This document shows positions 3,184-28,383 of a stretch of DNA of 64,000 bases, piece after piece; position 1 is the stretch's first letter, and every line of letters starts with the position of its first letter. The stretch is from Scenedesmus sp. PABB004 (Eukaryota): positions 558,001-622,000 of the forward strand of contig JABVCE010000007.1 in assembly GCA_014905635.1 (NCBI GenBank), in the 5' to 3' direction. A program made the position numbers and the translations under genes. The notes beneath the pieces were generated by a model. That model was not told where the DNA came from, did not search any database, and saw only the letters and a program-made list of their open reading frames with translations.

Positions 3184-3476
3184 TTCGGCTGCAGCTGCTG
3201 CCGCTGCTGCCGCTGCTGCAGGCACGAGGGTCTGCGTACGATGAGCGGCCAGCCAGCGCAGGGGTGTGGATCGAAGAGCGCAGAAGGAAGGGCGTCCGAC
3301 CAGCGCAAGCGTTTGGACCAGACCTGTCCGCTCGGGCGCCGCGGCGCGCGCCGCCGCAGCACGCCCAGCACCCTCCCCCCGAGGCACCAGTCGCCTCCCC
3401 GACCTCCACAAACGTCCCCCCGCGCAGCCTCGCACACAGGCTCCACCCCACACGCGGCCTCTCTCTGCCCCCAGCC

Positions 3477-4442
3477 ATGCAGCACCCGGTCGTCGCGAAG
3501 AAGCCCCGCGCCAAGCACCCGCCGTTCGCGGCGATGGTGTGTGAGGCGCTGGTGGTGCTCGGCGACGGCGGCCACGGCCTGGCAGCCATCAAGAAGGCGG
3601 TGGGAGCCAAGCACCAGGTGCGCAGCGACCCGGTCTGCTGCGGCGCTGCAGCGCCGCGCGGCGCGCGCGAGCGATGTCGGGCGGCCCGGCGCGACCGCGT
3701 CAGCGCGCCACGGACCTGCGCGGCGCCGCGCCCGGCACGGCCAGCTCAGCGATGCCCGTGCGGCGTGCCGTGTCGTGCGTGCGGCGCGTGGCGCGGCGCG
3801 CACGCGCGCAGGCGTGTGCGCGTGGCCCCTGCCGCACCTACGCGCAGCGCCGCGTGATGCGCCGGCCGCCGCCGGTGCCCGCACCAGCGCGCCCGCGCCC
3901 GCCGGCCCGCCGCCACACCGGCTCGCGCCGCCGCGGCGCGGCCTCGCGCCCACGGCTCACTGGCGTACTCACCCTCACCGCGGCCGCCCAGCTGCCCGCC
4001 GGCTGGGAGCGCCACGTGACGATGGCGGTCAAGGTGATGGCCGACAAGCACCTGCTCGTGCACACGCCCGGCCACGCCGGCCTCTTCCGCATGAGCAAGG
4101 CCCTGGCCGCCAAGCACGTGGTGCGGCGGCGCGCGCGTGCCGCACGGGGGACTGGGCGCTGCTGCCAGCGCGCGCCGGCGCGCGCTGCCGCCCGCGGCTG
4201 ACGCCGCAGCCCGACGCCGCCCGCCGCGCCGTCCCGCCACCGCCGCCCGCCGCGCCTCGCCGCAGGCCGCGCCCAGCAAGGCCAAGGCGGTGCCCAAGGC
4301 CAAGATGGTCAAGGCCAAGATGGTCAAGGCCAAGTCGCCCGCGATGAAGGCCAAGGCCGCCGGCAAGCCCAAGATGGCGGCCAAACCCAAGATGGCGGCC
4401 AAGCCCAAGGCCGGCAAGGCCAAGGCGGCCAGGAAGGCCTGA
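3477..4442 (+). CDS. Linker histone H1-like protein (divergent, 2 introns)
   Basis: Winged-helix-like HPPFAAMVCEAL...GLAAIKKAVGAKHQ|LPAGWERHVTMAVKVMADKHLLV...GLFRMSK, followed by a Lys/Ala/Pro-rich tail (AKPKMAAKPKAGKAKAARKA*). Confidence 0.8.
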
Positions 4443-5296
4443 GCGCCAGGGGCGGCGCAGCGGGGCCAGCGCCGGGGAGCGCGCGGCCTGCGCAGCGCGG
4501 TGCCCTGCGCCGCGGCCGGCTGCGCCGGGTGAGGGAGGATGGTCCGCCGCGCGTTGCGCGCGTGACGCGCAGCGCTGCAGTTTAAAGGACCTGTGCGCGC
4601 AGTTGCCTGTTCAACAAGTTTGTGATGAGCGGTGCTGGTTTGCAGTGTTTGTGTGCTGACTCGCTCGACGCGCGAGTCGTCTTTGACTGTGACCCTGACT
4701 CTGGCGGCTCCAACGCACGGTCTCGATGCTCACAACCGACCACCTCTCAACTGGCCACGCACCACCCATGGAGGCCTCGCGATCGCGCACTGCACAACAA
4801 CCCACCATCTTCACTGGCGGCTCTGGCTTTGACTCGAAGCGCCTCGGCGCTCGCCTGCAACACGCTGCGCCCACAATCGCGCGCCGGCGACGCGGCAGAT
4901 CCCGTGTGAGCCGCACCGAGGGCTGGCCGCGGGCCAGCAATCAGACTCTGCCAGCCACGGCGGGGCGCGCGGCGGGTGTGCGCCCCAACCGCGGCGCGAC
5001 GCGCCGCCGCGCGGCGGCGCCCCCCAGCAGACCCCGCCGCGCAGTGGCCAGCCCGGCACACCCACTCGGGTGCAGCCGCTCCCCCGAGCCCTGCAGCAGC
5101 ACACCGCGAGCGCACAGGCTGCAGCGCCCGCACCAAGTTTGCGGCCCGAGCTGCACAGCGCGCGGGGGCGGCTGCCGACGCGCAGGAGGCAGCTCTCCCT
5201 GCCTGCGCGAGGTGCAGCAGCGCTGCTGCAGCTCGCCATGCGCTAGCGACCACTGCAGCTCGACGCCCGCGGCCCCATCGGCGGCGCGTCGCCGGC

Positions 5297-20300: not shown

Positions 20301-21118
20301 AAAAAGGTGCCCCCGCCCGCCGGCGCCGCCCCCGCCGCCCGCGCCGCTCGCGCCGCCCGCGCCGCCGCCCTGCCGCCCGCGCCGCCCGAGCGCGCGCCCC
20401 GCGCCGCGCCCGCCACACGCCGCGCCCACCGCGCCGCGCACCGCACGCCGCCGCCGCCGCGCGCGCGCCCGCAGAGCCTGGGCTGGCGCACGATGCTGGT
20501 CGTGCCGGAGCTGGAGGCGGAGCTCGCGGTCGCGGGCGCGACGCGCGACACGCAGATAAACCTCAGCCAGCTGCGCGGCGCGCGGGGCGACGTGGACGCG
20601 CAGATCCAGGCGCGGCGCGCGCGCTGCGCCGCGCGCGCTGCGCCGCCGCCGCGCCGCGAATTGTGTGGCGACGGGCGCCGCCGGCGGGGGCCTTCGTGGG
20701 GTTGGGCCCTCATCGCCTAAGCCCCAGCCCCGTGCCGCGCCGCGCGCCGCAGCGGCTGCTGTGGGCGTTCAGGCACGGCGAGGTGCCGCCGGGCGCGCTG
20801 TCGGACAACCAGCGCACGCTCGAGGCGCTGCGCGGCGAGCGGGAGCGGCTCAAGGAGCTGCACAGCGACCTGCTGCGCCGCCACCACGAGGCCTTCCACC
20901 CGGTCTGGGGGCGGCTGCTGAAGACGGGCTACCAGCACAGCCGCTACGCGACGCAGATCGACCGCTTCGCCTGCCTCTACACCAGCCACGTCGCCAACCT
21001 CGCGTTCGTGTCCCCCGACCGCGCGTACCAGGGCCGCACCGACGTCATGGCCCACGAGGACGGCCTTGGCCTGCCGCTCGGCGGCGGCGACGGCGACGGC
21101 GGCCTCGGCGGCTGCTGA
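15856..21118 (+). CDS. HAD-superfamily subfamily IG 5'-nucleotidase (cN-II type) with organelle transit peptide, about 14 exons
   Basis: IFCNRSLNMKQIK|AVGFDMDYTLAQYK (HAD motif I), RGLIIDK|KRGNVIKVDRHKYVK, KVFLATNSLWDYTHVVMNYL, FDVVIVGCGKPGFF, VFQGGN, VLYVGDHIYGDILRSKK|SLGWRTMLVVPELE, RFACLYTSHVANL. Confidence 0.95.
16600..16932. repeat. Intronic (CCCCG)n / (GGGGC)n low-complexity tract
   Basis: About 330 bp composed almost entirely of ccccg/cccg units, running up to the CAG acceptor at about 16936. Confidence 0.9.
17108..17352. repeat. Imperfect (GT)n microsatellite in a 5'-nucleotidase intron
   Basis: About 245 bp of gtgtgt with a few interruptions. Confidence 0.95.
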
Positions 21119-21213: not shown

Positions 21214-21224
21214 TGTAAATTACA
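21214..21224. terminator. Back-to-back TGTAA polyadenylation signals (TGTAA-A-TTACA) for two convergent genes
   Basis: TGTAA on + (21214-21218) lies about 95 nt after the nucleotidase stop. TGTAA on - (21220-21224) lies about 40 nt after the PI31-like stop. TGTAA is the established chlorophyte poly(A) signal. Confidence 0.7.
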
Positions 21225-21262: not shown

Positions 21263-22378
21263 TCACCGGCGCGGCGCGCCCGGCCCCGCCCGGCGCCGCG
21301 CCGCGACGACGTACGCGACGACGCTGAGCGCGACCGCCGTCGCGACCACCGCGGGCAGCACGTAGCTGGCGCCGCCGCCGCCGGGCAGCCAGGCGGCCCA
21401 GCCCGCGCGGCGGCTACCGCCGCCGTCGGCCCACCCGGCCGCGTCGGCGCCCGCGCCGGGCGGGAGGTCCTCCGCCGCGTCGAGCAGCGGCGCGATCACG
21501 TGGTCGGCCATCATGCCCGCGAGCGCGTCGCCGTGCGCCACGACGCCAGCCCAGGCCGCGCCGCCGAGCAGCGCGGCCGCGCCGGGCGGCACGTACTTGG
21601 GCAGATAGAGGCCGAGCATCTGCGGCCGGGGCGCGGCGCGGGGCGCGGCCGCGGTCACGGCGGCGGCTCCGGCGGCGGCGCCATGCGGCGGCTGTGGCGG
21701 CAGCGGCGGCGACGCCACGCGGCGGCGGCTCCGGCGGCGGCGCCACGCGGCGGCGGCGCCATGCGGCGGCGGCGCGCCGCGCGGCGCGGCGCGCACGTGG
21801 TGGTTGCGCTGCTCGTTGCCCGCCTCCAGCGTGTGCACGAGCATGCGCCCCGTGGCGCGCTGCAGGCTGCAGTGCAGCACGAGCGTCGAGGCCTTGCCCG
21901 GCGCGGCGTAGCGGAACACCCATTCGTCCGCAAACTCCGCCGCCCACCCCGCCGGCGGCGGCCAGCGCGCCGCGGCGGGCGCGCCGCTCGGCAGCACGCA
22001 CTGCGGCGCGGCGCGGCGCGGCGGGGCGCGCGGGTCGGCGCCGCGCCCGGCGGCCGCGGGCGGGCGGGCCGCCGCGGCGGCGGCCGCTGCCGGCCGCCGG
22101 CCCCGCCGCGCCTTCATTCCCGCGTCCACCATCACGCAGTGGCACGCCAGGGCGAGGACCGCGCCCGGGTCGCCGCCGGGCACGCTGGCGGGCCCGCGGG
22201 GCGCCGCCTGGGCGAGCGCCTGCGCGGGTGTGGCGGGGCGCGCGCGCCCGCGGCGGCGTGGGCGCCCCCAGCCGCGCACCGGCCCCGGCGCACGCGGCCG
22301 TGCGCCGCTGCGCGTGCGGCCGCTGCGCGCGCGGGCGGCGCGCACCCGCTCCATGTCGGCCGCGCTCGAGATGGGCAT
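21263..22378 (-). CDS. PI31/Fbxo7 (FP)-domain-like protein with C-terminal transmembrane anchor, 4 exons
   Basis: MPISSAADMER|ALAQ...AVLALACHCVMVDAGMK|CV...PPAGWAAEFADEWVFRYAAPGKASTLVLHCSL...GRMLVH...|MLGLYLPKYV resembles the PI31 N-terminal domain by eye. C-terminal YVLPAVVATAVALSVVAYVVA-ARRR is a hydrophobic helix with a basic flank. Confidence 0.6.
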   Translation of the reverse strand: MPISSAADMERVRAARARSGRTRSGARPRAPGPVRGWGRPRRRGRARPATPAQALAQAAPRGPASVPGGDPGAVLALACHCVMVDAGMKARRGRRPAAAAAAAARPPAAAGRGADPRAPPRRAAPQCVLPSGAPAAARWPPPAGWAAEFADEWVFRYAAPGKASTLVLHCSLQRATGRMLVHTLEAGNEQRNHHVRAAPRGAPPPHGAAAAWRRRRSRRRVASPPLPPQPPHGAAAGAAAVTAAAPRAAPRPQMLGLYLPKYVPPGAAALLGGAAWAGVVAHGDALAGMMADHVIAPLLDAAEDLPPGAGADAAGWADGGGSRRAGWAAWLPGGGGASYVLPAVVATAVALSVVAYVVAARRRAGPGAPRR

Positions 22379-22385
22379 GCTGCGC

Positions 22386-23157
22386 TCAGGGGCGCGGCGG
22401 GCGCGCGAGGCTGAGCAGCGCGCGCAGGCTCTCGGCGACGTGGCCCCTGCCGCGGGGCTTGCCCGTCTTGGCCACGGCGCGGCCTGCGGGCACGCGGCGG
22501 TCGCGGCGCCGGGGCGCGTCGGCGGCGGGCGCCGCCGGCCGCGGGCGGTCGCGGCGCGGCGGCGGCGCGCCTTGCTGGTCGAGCACAATGAAGCAGGGCA
22601 CAGCCTCCACGCCGTAGGTCAGCATCTGCGGCGGGGCAGCGCGCGCCGCCGCACGCGCGCGGGCAGCAGTCGTCGGCAGCGGCGCCGCCGCTGCCTCAGC
22701 GCGCCCAGCAGCCCTGCGCGCGCCAAAACACCTCACCTCAGGCGCCCATGCGACGTGATCGTCGGTGGTGACCGACGCGACGCTGAGCCAGTCGCAGTCG
22801 CTGCCGACCTGCGCGGCAGCGGCGGCGGAGGGATGGCACGCGGCGCCGGGCGCGCAGCGCGCGCTGCGCCCGTCCAGCGCGCACCTGGTCCACCAGCGGC
22901 GCCAGGGAGCGGCAGAGCAGGCAGCGGCGCGAGTTGAAGAAGAGCAGGGTGTGCGTCGGCTTGGAGAGCGCCGCCGCGAGCTGGCGCTGCTGCTCCCTGC
23001 GCGCGCCCAGCGGCGGCAGGCGCAGCGTGAGGCGGCCGCGCGCGGTCGGGAGCGGCCGGGCAGGGCGCCTCGCGAGCGTGAGAGGGCGCGGCGCGCCGCA
23101 CCTGCTGCTGCTGCCGGCGCTGCGCTCGCTGCCGCCGCCGAACCAGTCCGGCCACAT
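22386..23157 (-). CDS. Thioredoxin-like protein (HCF164-like, CLLC active site), 4 exons
   Basis: TLLFFNSRRCLLCRSLAPLVDQ|V...WAPE|MLTYGVEAVPCFIVLDQQ|GRAVAK: thioredoxin fold with CxxC and the cis-Pro (VP) motif. Arg-rich N-terminal extension. Confidence 0.85.
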
Positions 23158-23349
23158 CGGCGAGCGGCGCGGGACCGTGATTCTGCGCGCGCTTGAGTGG
23201 CAGCGGCGGGGTCGGCGGCGAAGCGCCGCCGGGGGGCGCGCGGTTCTGAGCCGGGGCTCGCGAGCCTGCGGCGCCCCCCGGCTCTCGCGCAAGCTGGCCC
23301 GCCGGGCGGTGGTGCCATCACTCAGCGTGCACGAGCGCGGCGGCCGCTG

Positions 23350-24042
23350 GCACGGCGCGGCGGGCCTGCGTGCGGCGCGCCGCTGTTGCGCCGCGCTGGC
23401 GTGCGGCCCGGCGCGCTGCTGGCGGGCGGGCGGCAGCGGTCTAGAGACCCGGCGCTCGCTCGCCGGCGCCCAAGGCAGGAGCGCCCCCGCGCCGCCGCCC
23501 GCCCGCCGGCGGTGACGCGACGCCTCCGCGCGCCAACGACGCCCGGCCCGAGTGGCGCCGCCGGCCCCCACAGCCCGCTGCGCGCGGCGCGAGGCGCGTG
23601 CGCAACCGGCCGTTCCGCGCGTGCGGCGGCGCTGGGCGGCACGAGCCGGCGGGATGCCAATCGGGCGCAGCAGCAGTCAATGACGGAGGTCGTCGCTGAG
23701 TTACAGGGGGATAGGATAACACACTGAGCGCGCGCGCCAAGAGTTGTTGCGCGACGACGACGGCCAACTCCCGTGTTCCCCGGCGCCGGAGGCCTGGCAG
23801 CCGCGCGCGCCGACAGCCCACCATGTCAAACGGGCAGACGGATCCAAATGCCCCAGCAGCAGGGCAGCAGAGGGCCTGCGCAGCTCAGTGCGTGTTGGTG
23901 CCAACGGGCACGCGCAGAGGCAGCAAAAGCAGGGGGCTGTGGGTGGATTGAATTGGAGCGCCGCGCGCCGCCCGGCCTATCGCTGACGGCGGCTCGCAGG
24001 CGCGGGCGCACGCGCGCGCGCGCGGGGCTGGGTGCCGCCGCG
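23350..24042 (-). repeat. Inverted copy 1 of the FAD7 upstream region (matches about 27643-28340)
   Basis: 23665-24042 is a near-identical reverse complement of 27643-28020 (for example ggataacacactgagcg, gagttgttgcgcgacgacgacggccaactcccgtgttcccc, gggtggattgaattggagcg). 23350-23664 is a more diverged match to 28021-28340. Confidence 0.9.
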
Positions 24043-24043
24043 A

Positions 24044-24550
24044 GAGGGCGCGCCAATGCTGGCGACGCCGGCCCGCACGGCGCCCCGGGCCGGCAGGGGC
24101 ACCGCCACCCGGCTCACGGGCCCGGCGCGGCTCAGCCGCGCGCCCTGCGCGCACGGCGCGCGCGCGAGCTGCATCTTGAAGCGGTTTGGTGCGGCGCGCA
24201 GGTGCGCGAGCGCGGTGGCGTGGCGGGCCGGGGCGTGCGGCGCACGGGGAGGGGGGCGGTGTGGCGTCGCGCTGGCGGGCCCGCGCAGCGCTGGCGCGGG
24301 CGGGCGGCGGCGGCGGCGGTCTAGTGACCCGGCGCTCGCTTGCTCGCCGTCTGCGGCAGGAGCGCCCGCCGCGCCGCCGCGCGCCGGCGGTGACGTGACG
24401 CCTCCACGCGCCAACGACGCCCGGCCCTGCGCGGCGCCGCCGGCCCCCACCGCCCGCTGCGCGCGGCGCGAGGCGCGAGGCGCGGCCGCAACCGGCCGTT
24501 CCGCGCGTGCGGCGGCGCTGGGCTGCACGAGCCGGCGGGATGCCAATCGG
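24044..24550 (-). pseudogene. Inverted copy 2: FAD7 proximal promoter, 5'UTR and truncated exon 1 (matches 28021-28514)
   Basis: Reverse complement reproduces ATG (24174) [44 protein letters not shown], breaks at 24044, and reads into copy 1 to a stop at 23977. Confidence 0.88.
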
Positions 24551-26458: not shown

Positions 26459-28383
26459 GCGGCGCGCGCGGGGGGCAGCCCCCCAGCCACGGGCCCCATG
26501 AACGCGGCCCCGGAACGGCCTCGAACGGCCTCGAGCGAGTTGAGAGCGACGGCGATGCCCCGCCCATGTGGCTCCCGCGCGGTCGTGTATGTGCCCGGGG
26601 CCGCGGCGCCGCCGCCGTCGCGGCGGCGCCCCGCCCCGGCCAGCCGGTCGGCCGGCAGCAGAACCCCCCGGCCCCCGGCCGCGGCGCCGCCGCGCGCCCG
26701 CCGCCCAGAGCGGCGGCCGCGCGCCGGGCCGCGCGCGTCATCCATTCCTTGCGCCTGCACGTTCTGCCTGCGGCCGGGGCGCCAGCCGGCGGCGGCCAGC
26801 GCTCCCCACCGCACAGGCGGCCTGCCGAGGTTGCGCGCGGCGCGCCGAGGTGGCGCGCCGTGCGCGTCGGTGCTGGCCGCGGGCAGCGGCTGGCCCCCGC
26901 GCCTTTGCTTAGCGCGGCGGGCGGGGAGGGAGGGAGGTCGGCCTGCTTTGGATGCGGTGCAGGCGCGCGCGGGGCTGAACGCTGAACCAACCTTCTACCT
27001 GGCCTGCTGCTCCCCAGGGCATCTCTCTGTTTGTGCCCCCGGTGGCTGCTGCGGCTGCCGACGGGCTCGCGCCGGCCGGCGAGGTCGGCTGCGGGGCGCG
27101 TTTCGTGCAGCCGCGTGTTGAGGGTCGAGGTCGCCTGCTGCTCGCTCGCGCCTGTCGTGCGCTGCTTTCTGGCTCGGCGGCTGGCTGCGGCCGCCGCCCG
27201 CCCCATCAATGCGTGTTTCTCGCCCGAGGCCGGACGGTGGGAGGCGTGTTCGCGTTTTGCGCGTTGTGCGCGTGGTCGGGGCAGGGCCGTGAGGGCCCGC
27301 GCGCCCGTCCGCGAGTGTGGGTCTGTCCGCGTGGGTGGTGGTGAGGGGTTTTCCTTGTGGGTCGCGCGCTGCATCACCCAAGCTCGGATGGCTATATCGG
27401 CCCGCGCGTGGCGGGGAGGGTGCGCGCCGGCGCTCCGGCCGAGGAGTAGGGGGGAGGCTCGACGCCGCTCCCGCACAGCGCGCATGTGGCTGTGCGGCGC
27501 CCACTCGCTCGCTGCGCCCCGACTCGCTCGCTGCGCCCTCGCTCGCTGCGCCCCGTCCGAGGCGCTGCCGAGGTGCGGTGCAGCAGCAGCTGCACGCGCA
27601 TGCCGGTCAGCACTTGCGCGCGGGTCGCACGCCGCGGCGCGGCGCGGCGGCACCCAGCCCCGCGCGCGCGCGCGTGCGCCCGCGCCCGCGCGCCGCCGCC
27701 AGCGATAGGCCTGGCGGCGCGCGGCGCTCCAATTCAATCCACCCACAGCCCCATGCTTTTGCTGCCGTTGCGTGTGCCCGTTGGCACCAACACGCACTGA
27801 GCTGCGCAGGCCCTCTGCTGCCCTGCTGCTGGGGCATTTGGATCCGTCTGCCCGTTTGACATGGTGGGCTGTCGGCGCGCGCGGCTGCCAGGCCTCCGGC
27901 GCCGGGGAACACGGGAGTTGGCCGTCGTCGTCGCGCAACAACTCTTGGCGCGCGCGCTCAGTGTGTTATCCTACCCCCCTGTAACTCAGCGACGACCTCC
28001 GTCACTGACTGCTGCTGCGCCCGATTGGCATCCCGCGGCTCGTGACGCCCCGCGGCGCACGCGCGGACGACCTGTTGCGGCCGCGCCTCGCGCCGCGCGC
28101 AGCGGGCGGTGCGGGCCGGCGGCGCCGCGCAGGGCCGGGCGTCGTTGGCGCGTGGAGGCGTCACGTCACCGCCGGCGCGCGGCGGCGCGGCGGGCGCTCC
28201 TGCCGCAGACGGCGAGCAAGCGAGCGCCGGGTCACTAGACCGCCGCCGCCGCCGCCCGCCCGCGCCAGCGCTGCGCGGGCCCGCCAGCGCGACGCCACAC
28301 CGCCCCCCTCCCCGTGCGCCGCAGGCCCGGCCCGCCACGCCGCCGCGCTCGCGCACCTGCGCGCCGCACCGCGCCGCTTCAAG

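Follow-up and report, generated by a model that had tools for sequence, protein, structure and literature searches.

We analysed a 64,000-nucleotide (nt) stretch of DNA from the green alga Scenedesmus sp. PABB004 (contig JABVCE010000007.1, positions 558,001 to 622,000 of the forward strand; hereafter, the window), in which two spliced genes follow one another on the minus strand between positions 23157 and 21263. The first open reading frame (ORF1) encodes a predicted thioredoxin-like protein, and the second (ORF2) a predicted membrane protein with an FP domain. Below, we describe the two genes and their products, trace the pair in other algae, and argue that both are probably translated from one bicistronic mRNA.

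Two genes separated by seven nucleotides

On the minus strand, ORF1 ends with CGC CCC TGA (TGA at 22388-22386), which is followed by GCGCAGC (22385-22379) and then by ATG CCC ATC (ATG at 22378-22376), the first codons of ORF2. Thus, 7 nt lie between the ORF1 stop and the first ATG of ORF2, and the two frames differ. Both points had been made in a preliminary description of the locus, and reading the minus-strand letters confirmed them. When spliced, ORF1 (five exons) is 393 nt long, i.e., 130 codons with no internal stop, and ORF2 (four exons) is 702 nt long. The features of the locus, all on the minus strand and in the order in which they would be transcribed, are:

23701 to 23705, minus: poly(A) signal (TGTAA) belonging to the minus-strand gene that precedes ORF1; marks the upper limit of the transcription unit
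23380 to 23700, minus: dispersed repeat of ~320 nt upstream of ORF1; intergenic, with a GATTGGC (CCAAT-box-like) motif
23102 to 23157, minus: ORF1 (thioredoxin-like) exon 1, ATG at 23157-23155; N-terminal MWPDW resembles MLPDY of the orthologue on metagenome contig L009
22885 to 22996, minus: ORF1 exon 2; encodes LLFFNS (a strand) and the CxxC motif CLLC
22737 to 22808, minus: ORF1 exon 3, containing an out-of-frame ATG that opens a 3-codon mini-ORF
22571 to 22625, minus: ORF1 exon 4, with the in-frame Met81 and the VPCF motif; its 3' end is a putative GC donor
22484 to 22570, minus: putative GC-AG intron of ORF1, 87 nt, in frame and stop-free
22386 to 22483, minus: ORF1 exon 5, including the TGA stop (22388-22386)
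22379 to 22385, minus: inter-ORF spacer GCGCAGC, 7 nt
22346 to 22378, minus: ORF2 exon 1, with in-frame ATGs at 22378 and 22354; G+C of 1.00 at third codon positions versus 0.55 at first and second positions
22112 to 22219, minus: ORF2 exon 2; encodes the helices at the start of the FP domain
22001 to 22111, minus: putative GC-AG intron of ORF2, 111 nt; coding in the NCBI model
21797 to 22000, minus: ORF2 exon 3; encodes DEWVF...LHCSLQ in the FP-domain core (beta sheet)
21263 to 21619, minus: ORF2 exon 4; encodes the last part of the FP domain, a linker, the membrane helix near the C-terminus and a basic tail; TGA at 21265-21263
21220 to 21224, minus: TGTAA poly(A) signal of the two-ORF unit, 39 nt past the ORF2 stop

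The window is ~80% G+C throughout. Because long open frames are cheap in such a GC-rich genome (the unspliced ORF2 region is itself a single open frame throughout), we checked both ORFs for coding signatures. The G+C fraction at third codon positions was 0.95 in spliced ORF1 and 0.97 in spliced ORF2, compared with 0.56 and 0.62 at second positions. The seven introns have an overall G+C of 0.81-0.97, and in the five introns examined (those of ORF2 with lengths divisible by three, and intron 4 of ORF1) the value was flat over codon positions, at 0.86-1.00. Since this codon-position signature is found in the exons and not in the introns, and since each ORF has homologues (see below), ORF1 and ORF2 are genuine genes and not chance open frames of an 80% GC genome.

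Five of the seven introns begin with GT, while the donors of the other two (22570-22484 and 22111-22001) are GC, and both of these introns begin GCGCG. These segments are 94% and 97% G+C, respectively, and show no codon periodicity. The first is missing in the L009 orthologue, where the matching stretch is one exon; the second is missing in L009 and in the other 23 of 24 aligned members of the ORF2 family, and an AlphaFold2 model gave it a predicted local distance difference test score (pLDDT) of 48-60. From these comparisons we read both segments as putative GC-AG introns. Each is in frame and stop-free and could instead be a translated insertion (of 29 residues in the case of 22570-22484). 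L009 also has a GC-AG intron (3597-3718), which starts GCGAGT where the window has a GT donor.

Several further observations concern the introns. Six of the seven have lengths divisible by three (105, 111, 87, 126, 111 and 177 nt) and are stop-free in frame, the exception being 76 nt long; the binomial chance of at least six in seven is ~0.007. The five introns of L009 (79, 122, 85, 185 and 98 nt) show no such bias. In the region of ORF2 intron 3 (21670-21803), a GC-rich unit of 56 nt is present in four overlapping copies spaced by 28, 34 and 16 nt.

Two start codons come into question for ORF2. The NCBI model begins at the second in-frame ATG (22354), 31 nt past the ORF1 stop. In the 24-sequence alignment, the N-terminus is 3-5 residues longer than that of typical homologues when counted from the ATG at 22378 and 3-5 residues shorter when counted from 22354.

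A thioredoxin-like protein and a tail-anchored FP-domain protein

In the thioredoxin fold, a CxxC motif follows the first strand and a cis-proline motif precedes the third strand. ORF1 carries LLFFNS..CLLC and VPCF, and the L009 counterparts of the two motifs are CTLC and VPSF. Judged against this general description of the fold, the order of motifs in ORF1 (LLFFNS, CLLC, VPCF, a glycine turn and a terminal helix) is that predicted for a minimal thioredoxin fold. Family searches, in which single exons rather than the spliced product served as queries, gave marginal scores. In Pfam, the exons of ORF1 matched TraF (E value (E) 0.099) and were otherwise mostly blank, and exon 1 of the L009 gene matched Thioredoxin_7 (E 0.056) and Thioredoxin_2 (E 0.21). 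A two-sequence profile of ORF1 exon 2 and L009 exon 1 has 17 invariant columns, both cysteines among them; searched against the PDB, it found a disulphide isomerase as its best match (E 0.022), and four of its eight matches have a thioredoxin fold. Furthermore, 27 of the 30 named matches in the ESM Atlas belong to the PF00085 set, with a top score of 0.93. The C-terminal half of ORF1 found no family match and no thioredoxin match in the PDB profile search. We take the ORF1 product to be a putative, atypical thioredoxin-fold protein of 130 residues with a CLLC motif. Word-indexed protein searches with ORF1 (exons 3-5 unspliced; exon 2 plus 3 residues, against longer proteins) returned no protein and no self match. 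This null result is not evidence that ORF1 lacks relatives; it weakly suggests that ORF1 is missing from the public annotation of this organism, in which the ORF2 product is present.

The same kind of search with ORF2 returned one match, a hypothetical protein of Scenedesmus sp. PABB004 in NCBI (P0001), which is identical letter for letter to the window translation if the start is placed at 22354 and segment 22111-22001 is taken as coding. An exhaustive HMMER search with this protein gave 139 cluster representatives (E<=1e-3), of which 46 reached E<=1e-10. Among thirty of the 139 representatives that were looked up, all those with an organism name came from green algae, namely Scenedesmus, Raphidocelis, Myrmecia, Pleodorina, Volvox, Astrephomene, Haematococcus, Auxenochlorella, Tetraselmis and Chlamydomonas species. 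The conserved parts of the 24-sequence alignment are an N-terminal helix region, the DEWVF...LHCSLQ core and, at the C-terminus, a hydrophobic helix with a few basic residues behind it.

At the level of sequence, the FP domain is near the limit of detection in the window protein. P0001 matched no Pfam family at E<=0.01, and the window ORF2 product scored 15.1 bits against PF11566 (PI31_Prot_N; E 0.019), for which the cut-off is 21 bits. PF11566 was matched at E<=0.01 by 19 of the 24 aligned family members (best E 3.7e-8), and no other Pfam family was matched. The AlphaFold2 model of P0001 has a mean pLDDT of 80.4. In a Foldseek search with this model, the top eight PDB matches (all E<=0.001; E 3e-5 to 9e-4) were FP domains of PI31 or Fbxo7, with template modelling (TM) scores of 0.51-0.79 on the target and sequence identities of 13-22%. 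The model also has a C-terminal helix at residues 231-254, of which the 19 residues at 231-249 have a mean hydropathy of 2.41, followed by a basic tail of 13 residues. These sequence and model comparisons indicate that the ORF2 product is an FP-domain protein (of the PI31 N-terminal type) with a predicted C-terminal tail-anchor helix and a length of 225-233 residues, in line with the PI31-like membrane protein of the preliminary description.

PI31 proper has a proline-rich, proteasome-binding C-terminal region after its FP domain. In ORF2, the FP domain is followed by a linker, the hydrophobic helix and the basic tail, and the proline-rich region is absent. Because this region is absent, the ORF2 product is not PI31 itself. 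The suggestion that it serves as a proteasome adaptor found no support, since what it shares with PI31 is only the FP dimerisation domain, and a membrane helix takes the place of the proteasome-binding region. A literature search on PF11566 and PI31_Prot_N found nothing relevant.

The same gene pair in other algae

A metagenome scan with an eight-sequence alignment of the ORF2 family as query found nine loci (L001-L009). On contig L009, a three-exon thioredoxin gene (3299-3877) is followed by an FP-domain gene (3983-5022) in the same order and on the same strand as in the window, with a gap of 105 nt. The L009 thioredoxin aligned to spliced ORF1 with 47% identity over 106 residues without gaps (E 9e-30), and the second L009 protein aligned to spliced ORF2 with 45% identity over 216 residues (E 2e-45). 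The C-terminal length of ORF1 is within 2 residues of that of the L009 thioredoxin. Because this length and the N-terminus (MLPDY in L009, MWPDW here) agree between the two proteins, we fixed the ORF1 start at 23157 and its stop at 22386. A start at the upstream ATG at 23318 was ruled out, because in the spliced transcript this ATG and exon 2 are in different frames and because the start of the L009 protein matches 23157.

The pair is also on record in two algae with sequenced transcripts. In Chromochloris zofingiensis, Cz06g30025 (cd02950 TxlA-like thioredoxin, 399 nt) is followed by Cz06g30020 (PF11566, 867 nt) after a gap of 584 nt, and in Chlamydomonas reinhardtii, Cre14.g615250 (thioredoxin, 321 nt) is followed by Cre14.g615224 (unannotated, 432 nt) after a gap of 447 nt (Gallaher et al. 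2021, PMC7896298, Datasets S1 and S5). The sheets of that study place both pairs in the 'full' (exclusively polycistronic) Iso-Seq class, and the cd02950 (TxlA-like) assignments of the two first ORFs have E values of 3e-11 and 7e-16 (PMC7896298). In addition, the supplement of Duenas et al. 2025 (PMC11892635) lists ribosome profiling (Ribo-seq) reads on both ORFs of the Chlamydomonas pair. The pairing, which the preliminary description did not recognise, had therefore already been tabulated in the supplement of Gallaher et al. 2021 (PMC7896298). A literature search on the four Chromochloris and Chlamydomonas gene identifiers returned a single paper, which is unrelated. By analogy of domains and order, we take the window locus to be the counterpart of Cz06g30025/Cz06g30020 and of Cre14.g615250/Cre14.g615224, and the thioredoxin/FP pairing is conserved in some green algae, not in all.

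A probable bicistronic mRNA and its alternatives

Signals of polyadenylation lie on either side of the two ORFs. The window contains 11 copies of TGTAA where 3.7 would be expected, a count that none of 100 shuffles reached. On the minus strand, copies at 23705-23701 and 21224-21220 flank the pair, with none in between. The first of these ends a stretch of lower G+C (0.60-0.71 at 23650-23999) that resembles the 3' untranslated region of the preceding gene. As had been described, the only such signal for the pair lies downstream of ORF2: between 23705 and 21220, the sole further minus-strand TGTAA is the one at 21224-21220. The arrangement is similar on L009, where the only two TGTAA in 6668 nt lie 124 nt before the ORF1 ATG and 160 nt after the ORF2 stop.

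The start codons also differ in strength. The ORF1 ATG is in a weak context, with C at -3 and T as the base that follows. For ORF2, the first ATG (22378) has A at -3, and the second (22354) combines G at -3 with a G directly behind it. In L009, ORF1 has neither a purine at -3 nor a G after the ATG, and ORF2 has both elements. A weak ORF1 context combined with a stronger ORF2 context is the pattern reported for bicistrons that are read by leaky scanning, in which ORF1 has median sizes of 357 and 291 nt and, in Auxenochlorella, gaps of a few nt and even overlapping stop and start codons are found (Duenas et al. 2025, PMC11892635). The 393 nt of ORF1 are typical in size for a bicistronic ORF1.

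From these patterns and by analogy with the published loci, we infer that 23157-21263 is likely a single nuclear transcription unit in which two independent ORFs share one spliced, polyadenylated mRNA and ORF2 is translated via leaky scanning. One mRNA spanning ORF1 and ORF2 would be transcribed from the minus strand and would end at the TGTAA at 21224-21220. Ribosomes would pass the weak ORF1 start codon by leaky scanning and reach an ORF2 ATG 7 or 31 nt past the ORF1 stop, and reinitiation after short internal ORFs or after ORF1 may contribute, given the tiny gap. Experiments on other green-algal bicistrons have demonstrated leaky scanning (Duenas et al. 2025, PMC11892635 / PMC11291117). The probable nuclear bicistron proposed in the preliminary description is well supported, if indirectly, by the published polycistronic pairs of the same families in the same order, by the recurrence on L009, and by the fit of poly(A) signals and start contexts; the shared transcript in Scenedesmus itself stands as a prediction.

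Several points weigh against this reading. Seven of the nine metagenome loci (L001-L007, which form three near-identical groups) have no thioredoxin within 4 kb upstream by tblastn and by a search for CxxC and cis-Pro motifs, and L008, at 1216 nt, is too short to judge. The gene models need GC donors for two introns. Orthology to the Chromochloris and Chlamydomonas loci rests on the domain pair, its order, ORF sizes and taxonomy. The Chlamydomonas pair was removed from the 2025 high-confidence set owing to an unconserved stop in its second ORF (PMC11892635). Neither pair is among the conserved pairs of the homology table of Gallaher et al. 2021 (Dataset S4, PMC7896298), and the words 'thioredoxin' and 'PI31' do not occur in the main text of that paper (PMC7896298). 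Since table and main text are both silent, conservation of the pair was not pointed out there. Term searches did not find the thioredoxin/FP pair in the Auxenochlorella bicistron table. Spliced ORF1 has two internal ATGs, counted over 400 nt, against 1.3 expected from base composition, an expectation too low to show depletion. One of them, the codon of Met81, lies in the ORF1 frame; it has G at -3 and would intercept scanning ribosomes. Finally, an upstream ATG at 23316-23318, located 161 nt before the ORF1 start and in a different frame from spliced ORF1, has a strong context, with G both at -3 and directly behind it. In a transcript whose 5' untranslated region exceeds 160 nt, it would act as an upstream start codon.

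A bicistronic mRNA could also be translated in another way, with ORF2 reached mainly by termination and reinitiation after ORF1, after the 50-codon sub-ORF that begins at Met81, or after the 3-codon mini-ORF. The gap of 7 nt would suit this route, as short gaps favour reinitiation (Duenas et al. 2025, PMC11892635). In addition, all three upstream ATG-initiated ORFs stop before the ORF2 ATG, and the Met81 ATG, with its G at -3, would capture part of the leaky flux. However, where algal loci were mutated to give ORF1 a stronger start context, ORF2 output fell (Duenas et al. 2025, PMC11892635), which speaks against reinitiation. Reinitiation also drops in efficiency with ORF length, and ORF1 has 130 codons. 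Gaps of 105, 447 and 584 nt at orthologous loci further argue that tight coupling is not a conserved requirement. We regard reinitiation as the main route to ORF2 as unlikely.

Alternatively, the locus could produce two functionally separate mRNAs, with ORF2 transcribed from its own promoter inside the ORF1 gene and ORF1 transcripts running through to the shared poly(A) site without serving ORF2 translation. Many loci are only partly polycistronic (Gallaher et al. 2021, PMC7896298), and the NCBI annotation models ORF2 alone, both of which would be consistent with such a arrangement of transcripts. Yet the orthologous loci of two species fall in the exclusively polycistronic class (PMC7896298), TGTAA is absent between the ORFs in both the window and L009, and the pattern of a weak ORF1 start and a strong ORF2 start is conserved in both. 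Separate mRNAs are, in our view, distinctly improbable.

A single fusion protein made by alternative splicing, read-through or frameshifting is very improbable, and we rejected splicing and read-through on frames: ORF1 exons 2 and 3 have phase-0 donors, which could be spliced in frame to any ORF2 acceptor, and an acceptor-like GCGCAG lies just before the ORF2 ATG, but products of these in-frame joins would lack the half of the thioredoxin fold that holds the cis-proline, the donor of ORF1 exon 4 (the last one) has phase 1 and every ORF2 acceptor requires phase 0 (confirming the splice arithmetic by which a fusion had been called unlikely), read-through is excluded by the 7-nt gap, ORF2 exon 1 of L009 is 170 nt long so that its exon-2 acceptor needs phase 2 while the L009 ORF1 donors are phase 0, the ORF2 N-terminus aligns with the free N-termini of 23 homologues, and few of the 139 matches are much longer than 300 residues.

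The flanks of the proposed bicistronic unit hold features of their own. At 21214-21224, the sequence TGTAATTTACA contains TGTAA on both strands, 1 nt apart. The plus-strand copy (21214-21218) is that of a convergent gene whose frame ends at 21118, and the transcripts of this gene and of the ORF2 unit probably overlap at their 3' ends. Upstream of ORF1, the ~320-nt repeat at 23380-23700 has further copies at 24257-24550 (85%) and 27985-28302 (85%, inverted), and also lies upstream of a small ORF that starts at 24174. The first and third copies each begin right after a TGTAA (23705-23701 on the minus strand and 27980-27984 on the plus strand). The repeat is a candidate mobile element or shared terminator/promoter module, and the region 23380-23700 is a possible promoter of the ORF1 unit.

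Bicistronic loci of this kind are known, and the same gene pair is on record in two other algae; here the locus is unusually compact. The window locus would be the third or fourth species for a bicistronic locus already recorded by Iso-Seq. What this analysis adds is the recurrence of the pair, its compaction to 7 nt, the fold-level identity of ORF2 as an FP-domain protein with a predicted tail anchor, and the observation that ORF1 appears to be missing from the public protein set. The last point illustrates an annotation gap, in that the public gene set appears to hold ORF2 and no protein containing ORF1. Persistence of the pairing across chlorophycean algae, which was unflagged in the original homology table, speaks for a functional link between the two proteins. 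One tentative and rather doubtful possibility is that they form a conserved chlorophycean two-part module, e.g., a redox-controlled membrane dock in which the CxxC protein targets the conserved cysteines of HC..MV and LHCSLQ in the FP domain. The stoichiometry of this module would be set by bicistronic translation, and its gap would have collapsed in this lineage from hundreds of nt to 7, moving ORF2 translation towards stop-start coupling. If this were true, the pair would offer a natural test case for leaky scanning versus reinitiation on one orthologous locus. With a gap that is extreme among orthologues (7 nt versus 105, 447 and 584 nt), the locus is in any event useful for comparing mechanisms of translation.

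The Chromochloris locus is among the closest known systems. Both algae belong to the order Sphaeropleales (by NCBI and the names used in the paper), a TxlA-like thioredoxin comes first and a PF11566 protein second on the same strand, and the first ORFs are nearly equal in length (399 versus 393 nt). The loci differ in the gap (584 nt versus 7 nt here) and in the length of ORF2 (867 nt versus 702-789 nt here). The Chlamydomonas locus likewise has a thioredoxin ORF first with a second ORF after it and falls in the exclusively polycistronic class, but its gap is 447 nt, and its second ORF of 432 nt, a putative member of the FP family, carries no domain annotation. With the green-algal bicistrons of Duenas et al., the window locus shares a short ORF1 with a weak start, a stronger ORF2 context and a short gap (some Auxenochlorella loci overlap), whereas its ORF1 contains an in-frame ATG in a fair context; leaky scanning is proposed here by analogy with those loci. 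Finally, the model of the ORF2 product resembles the FP domains of PI31 (PSMF1) and Fbxo7 (PDB 2VT8, 4OUH and 4L9C) in fold, but the protein has neither the proline-rich C-terminal region of the former nor an F-box, and is predicted to end instead in a tail-anchor helix and a short basic tail.

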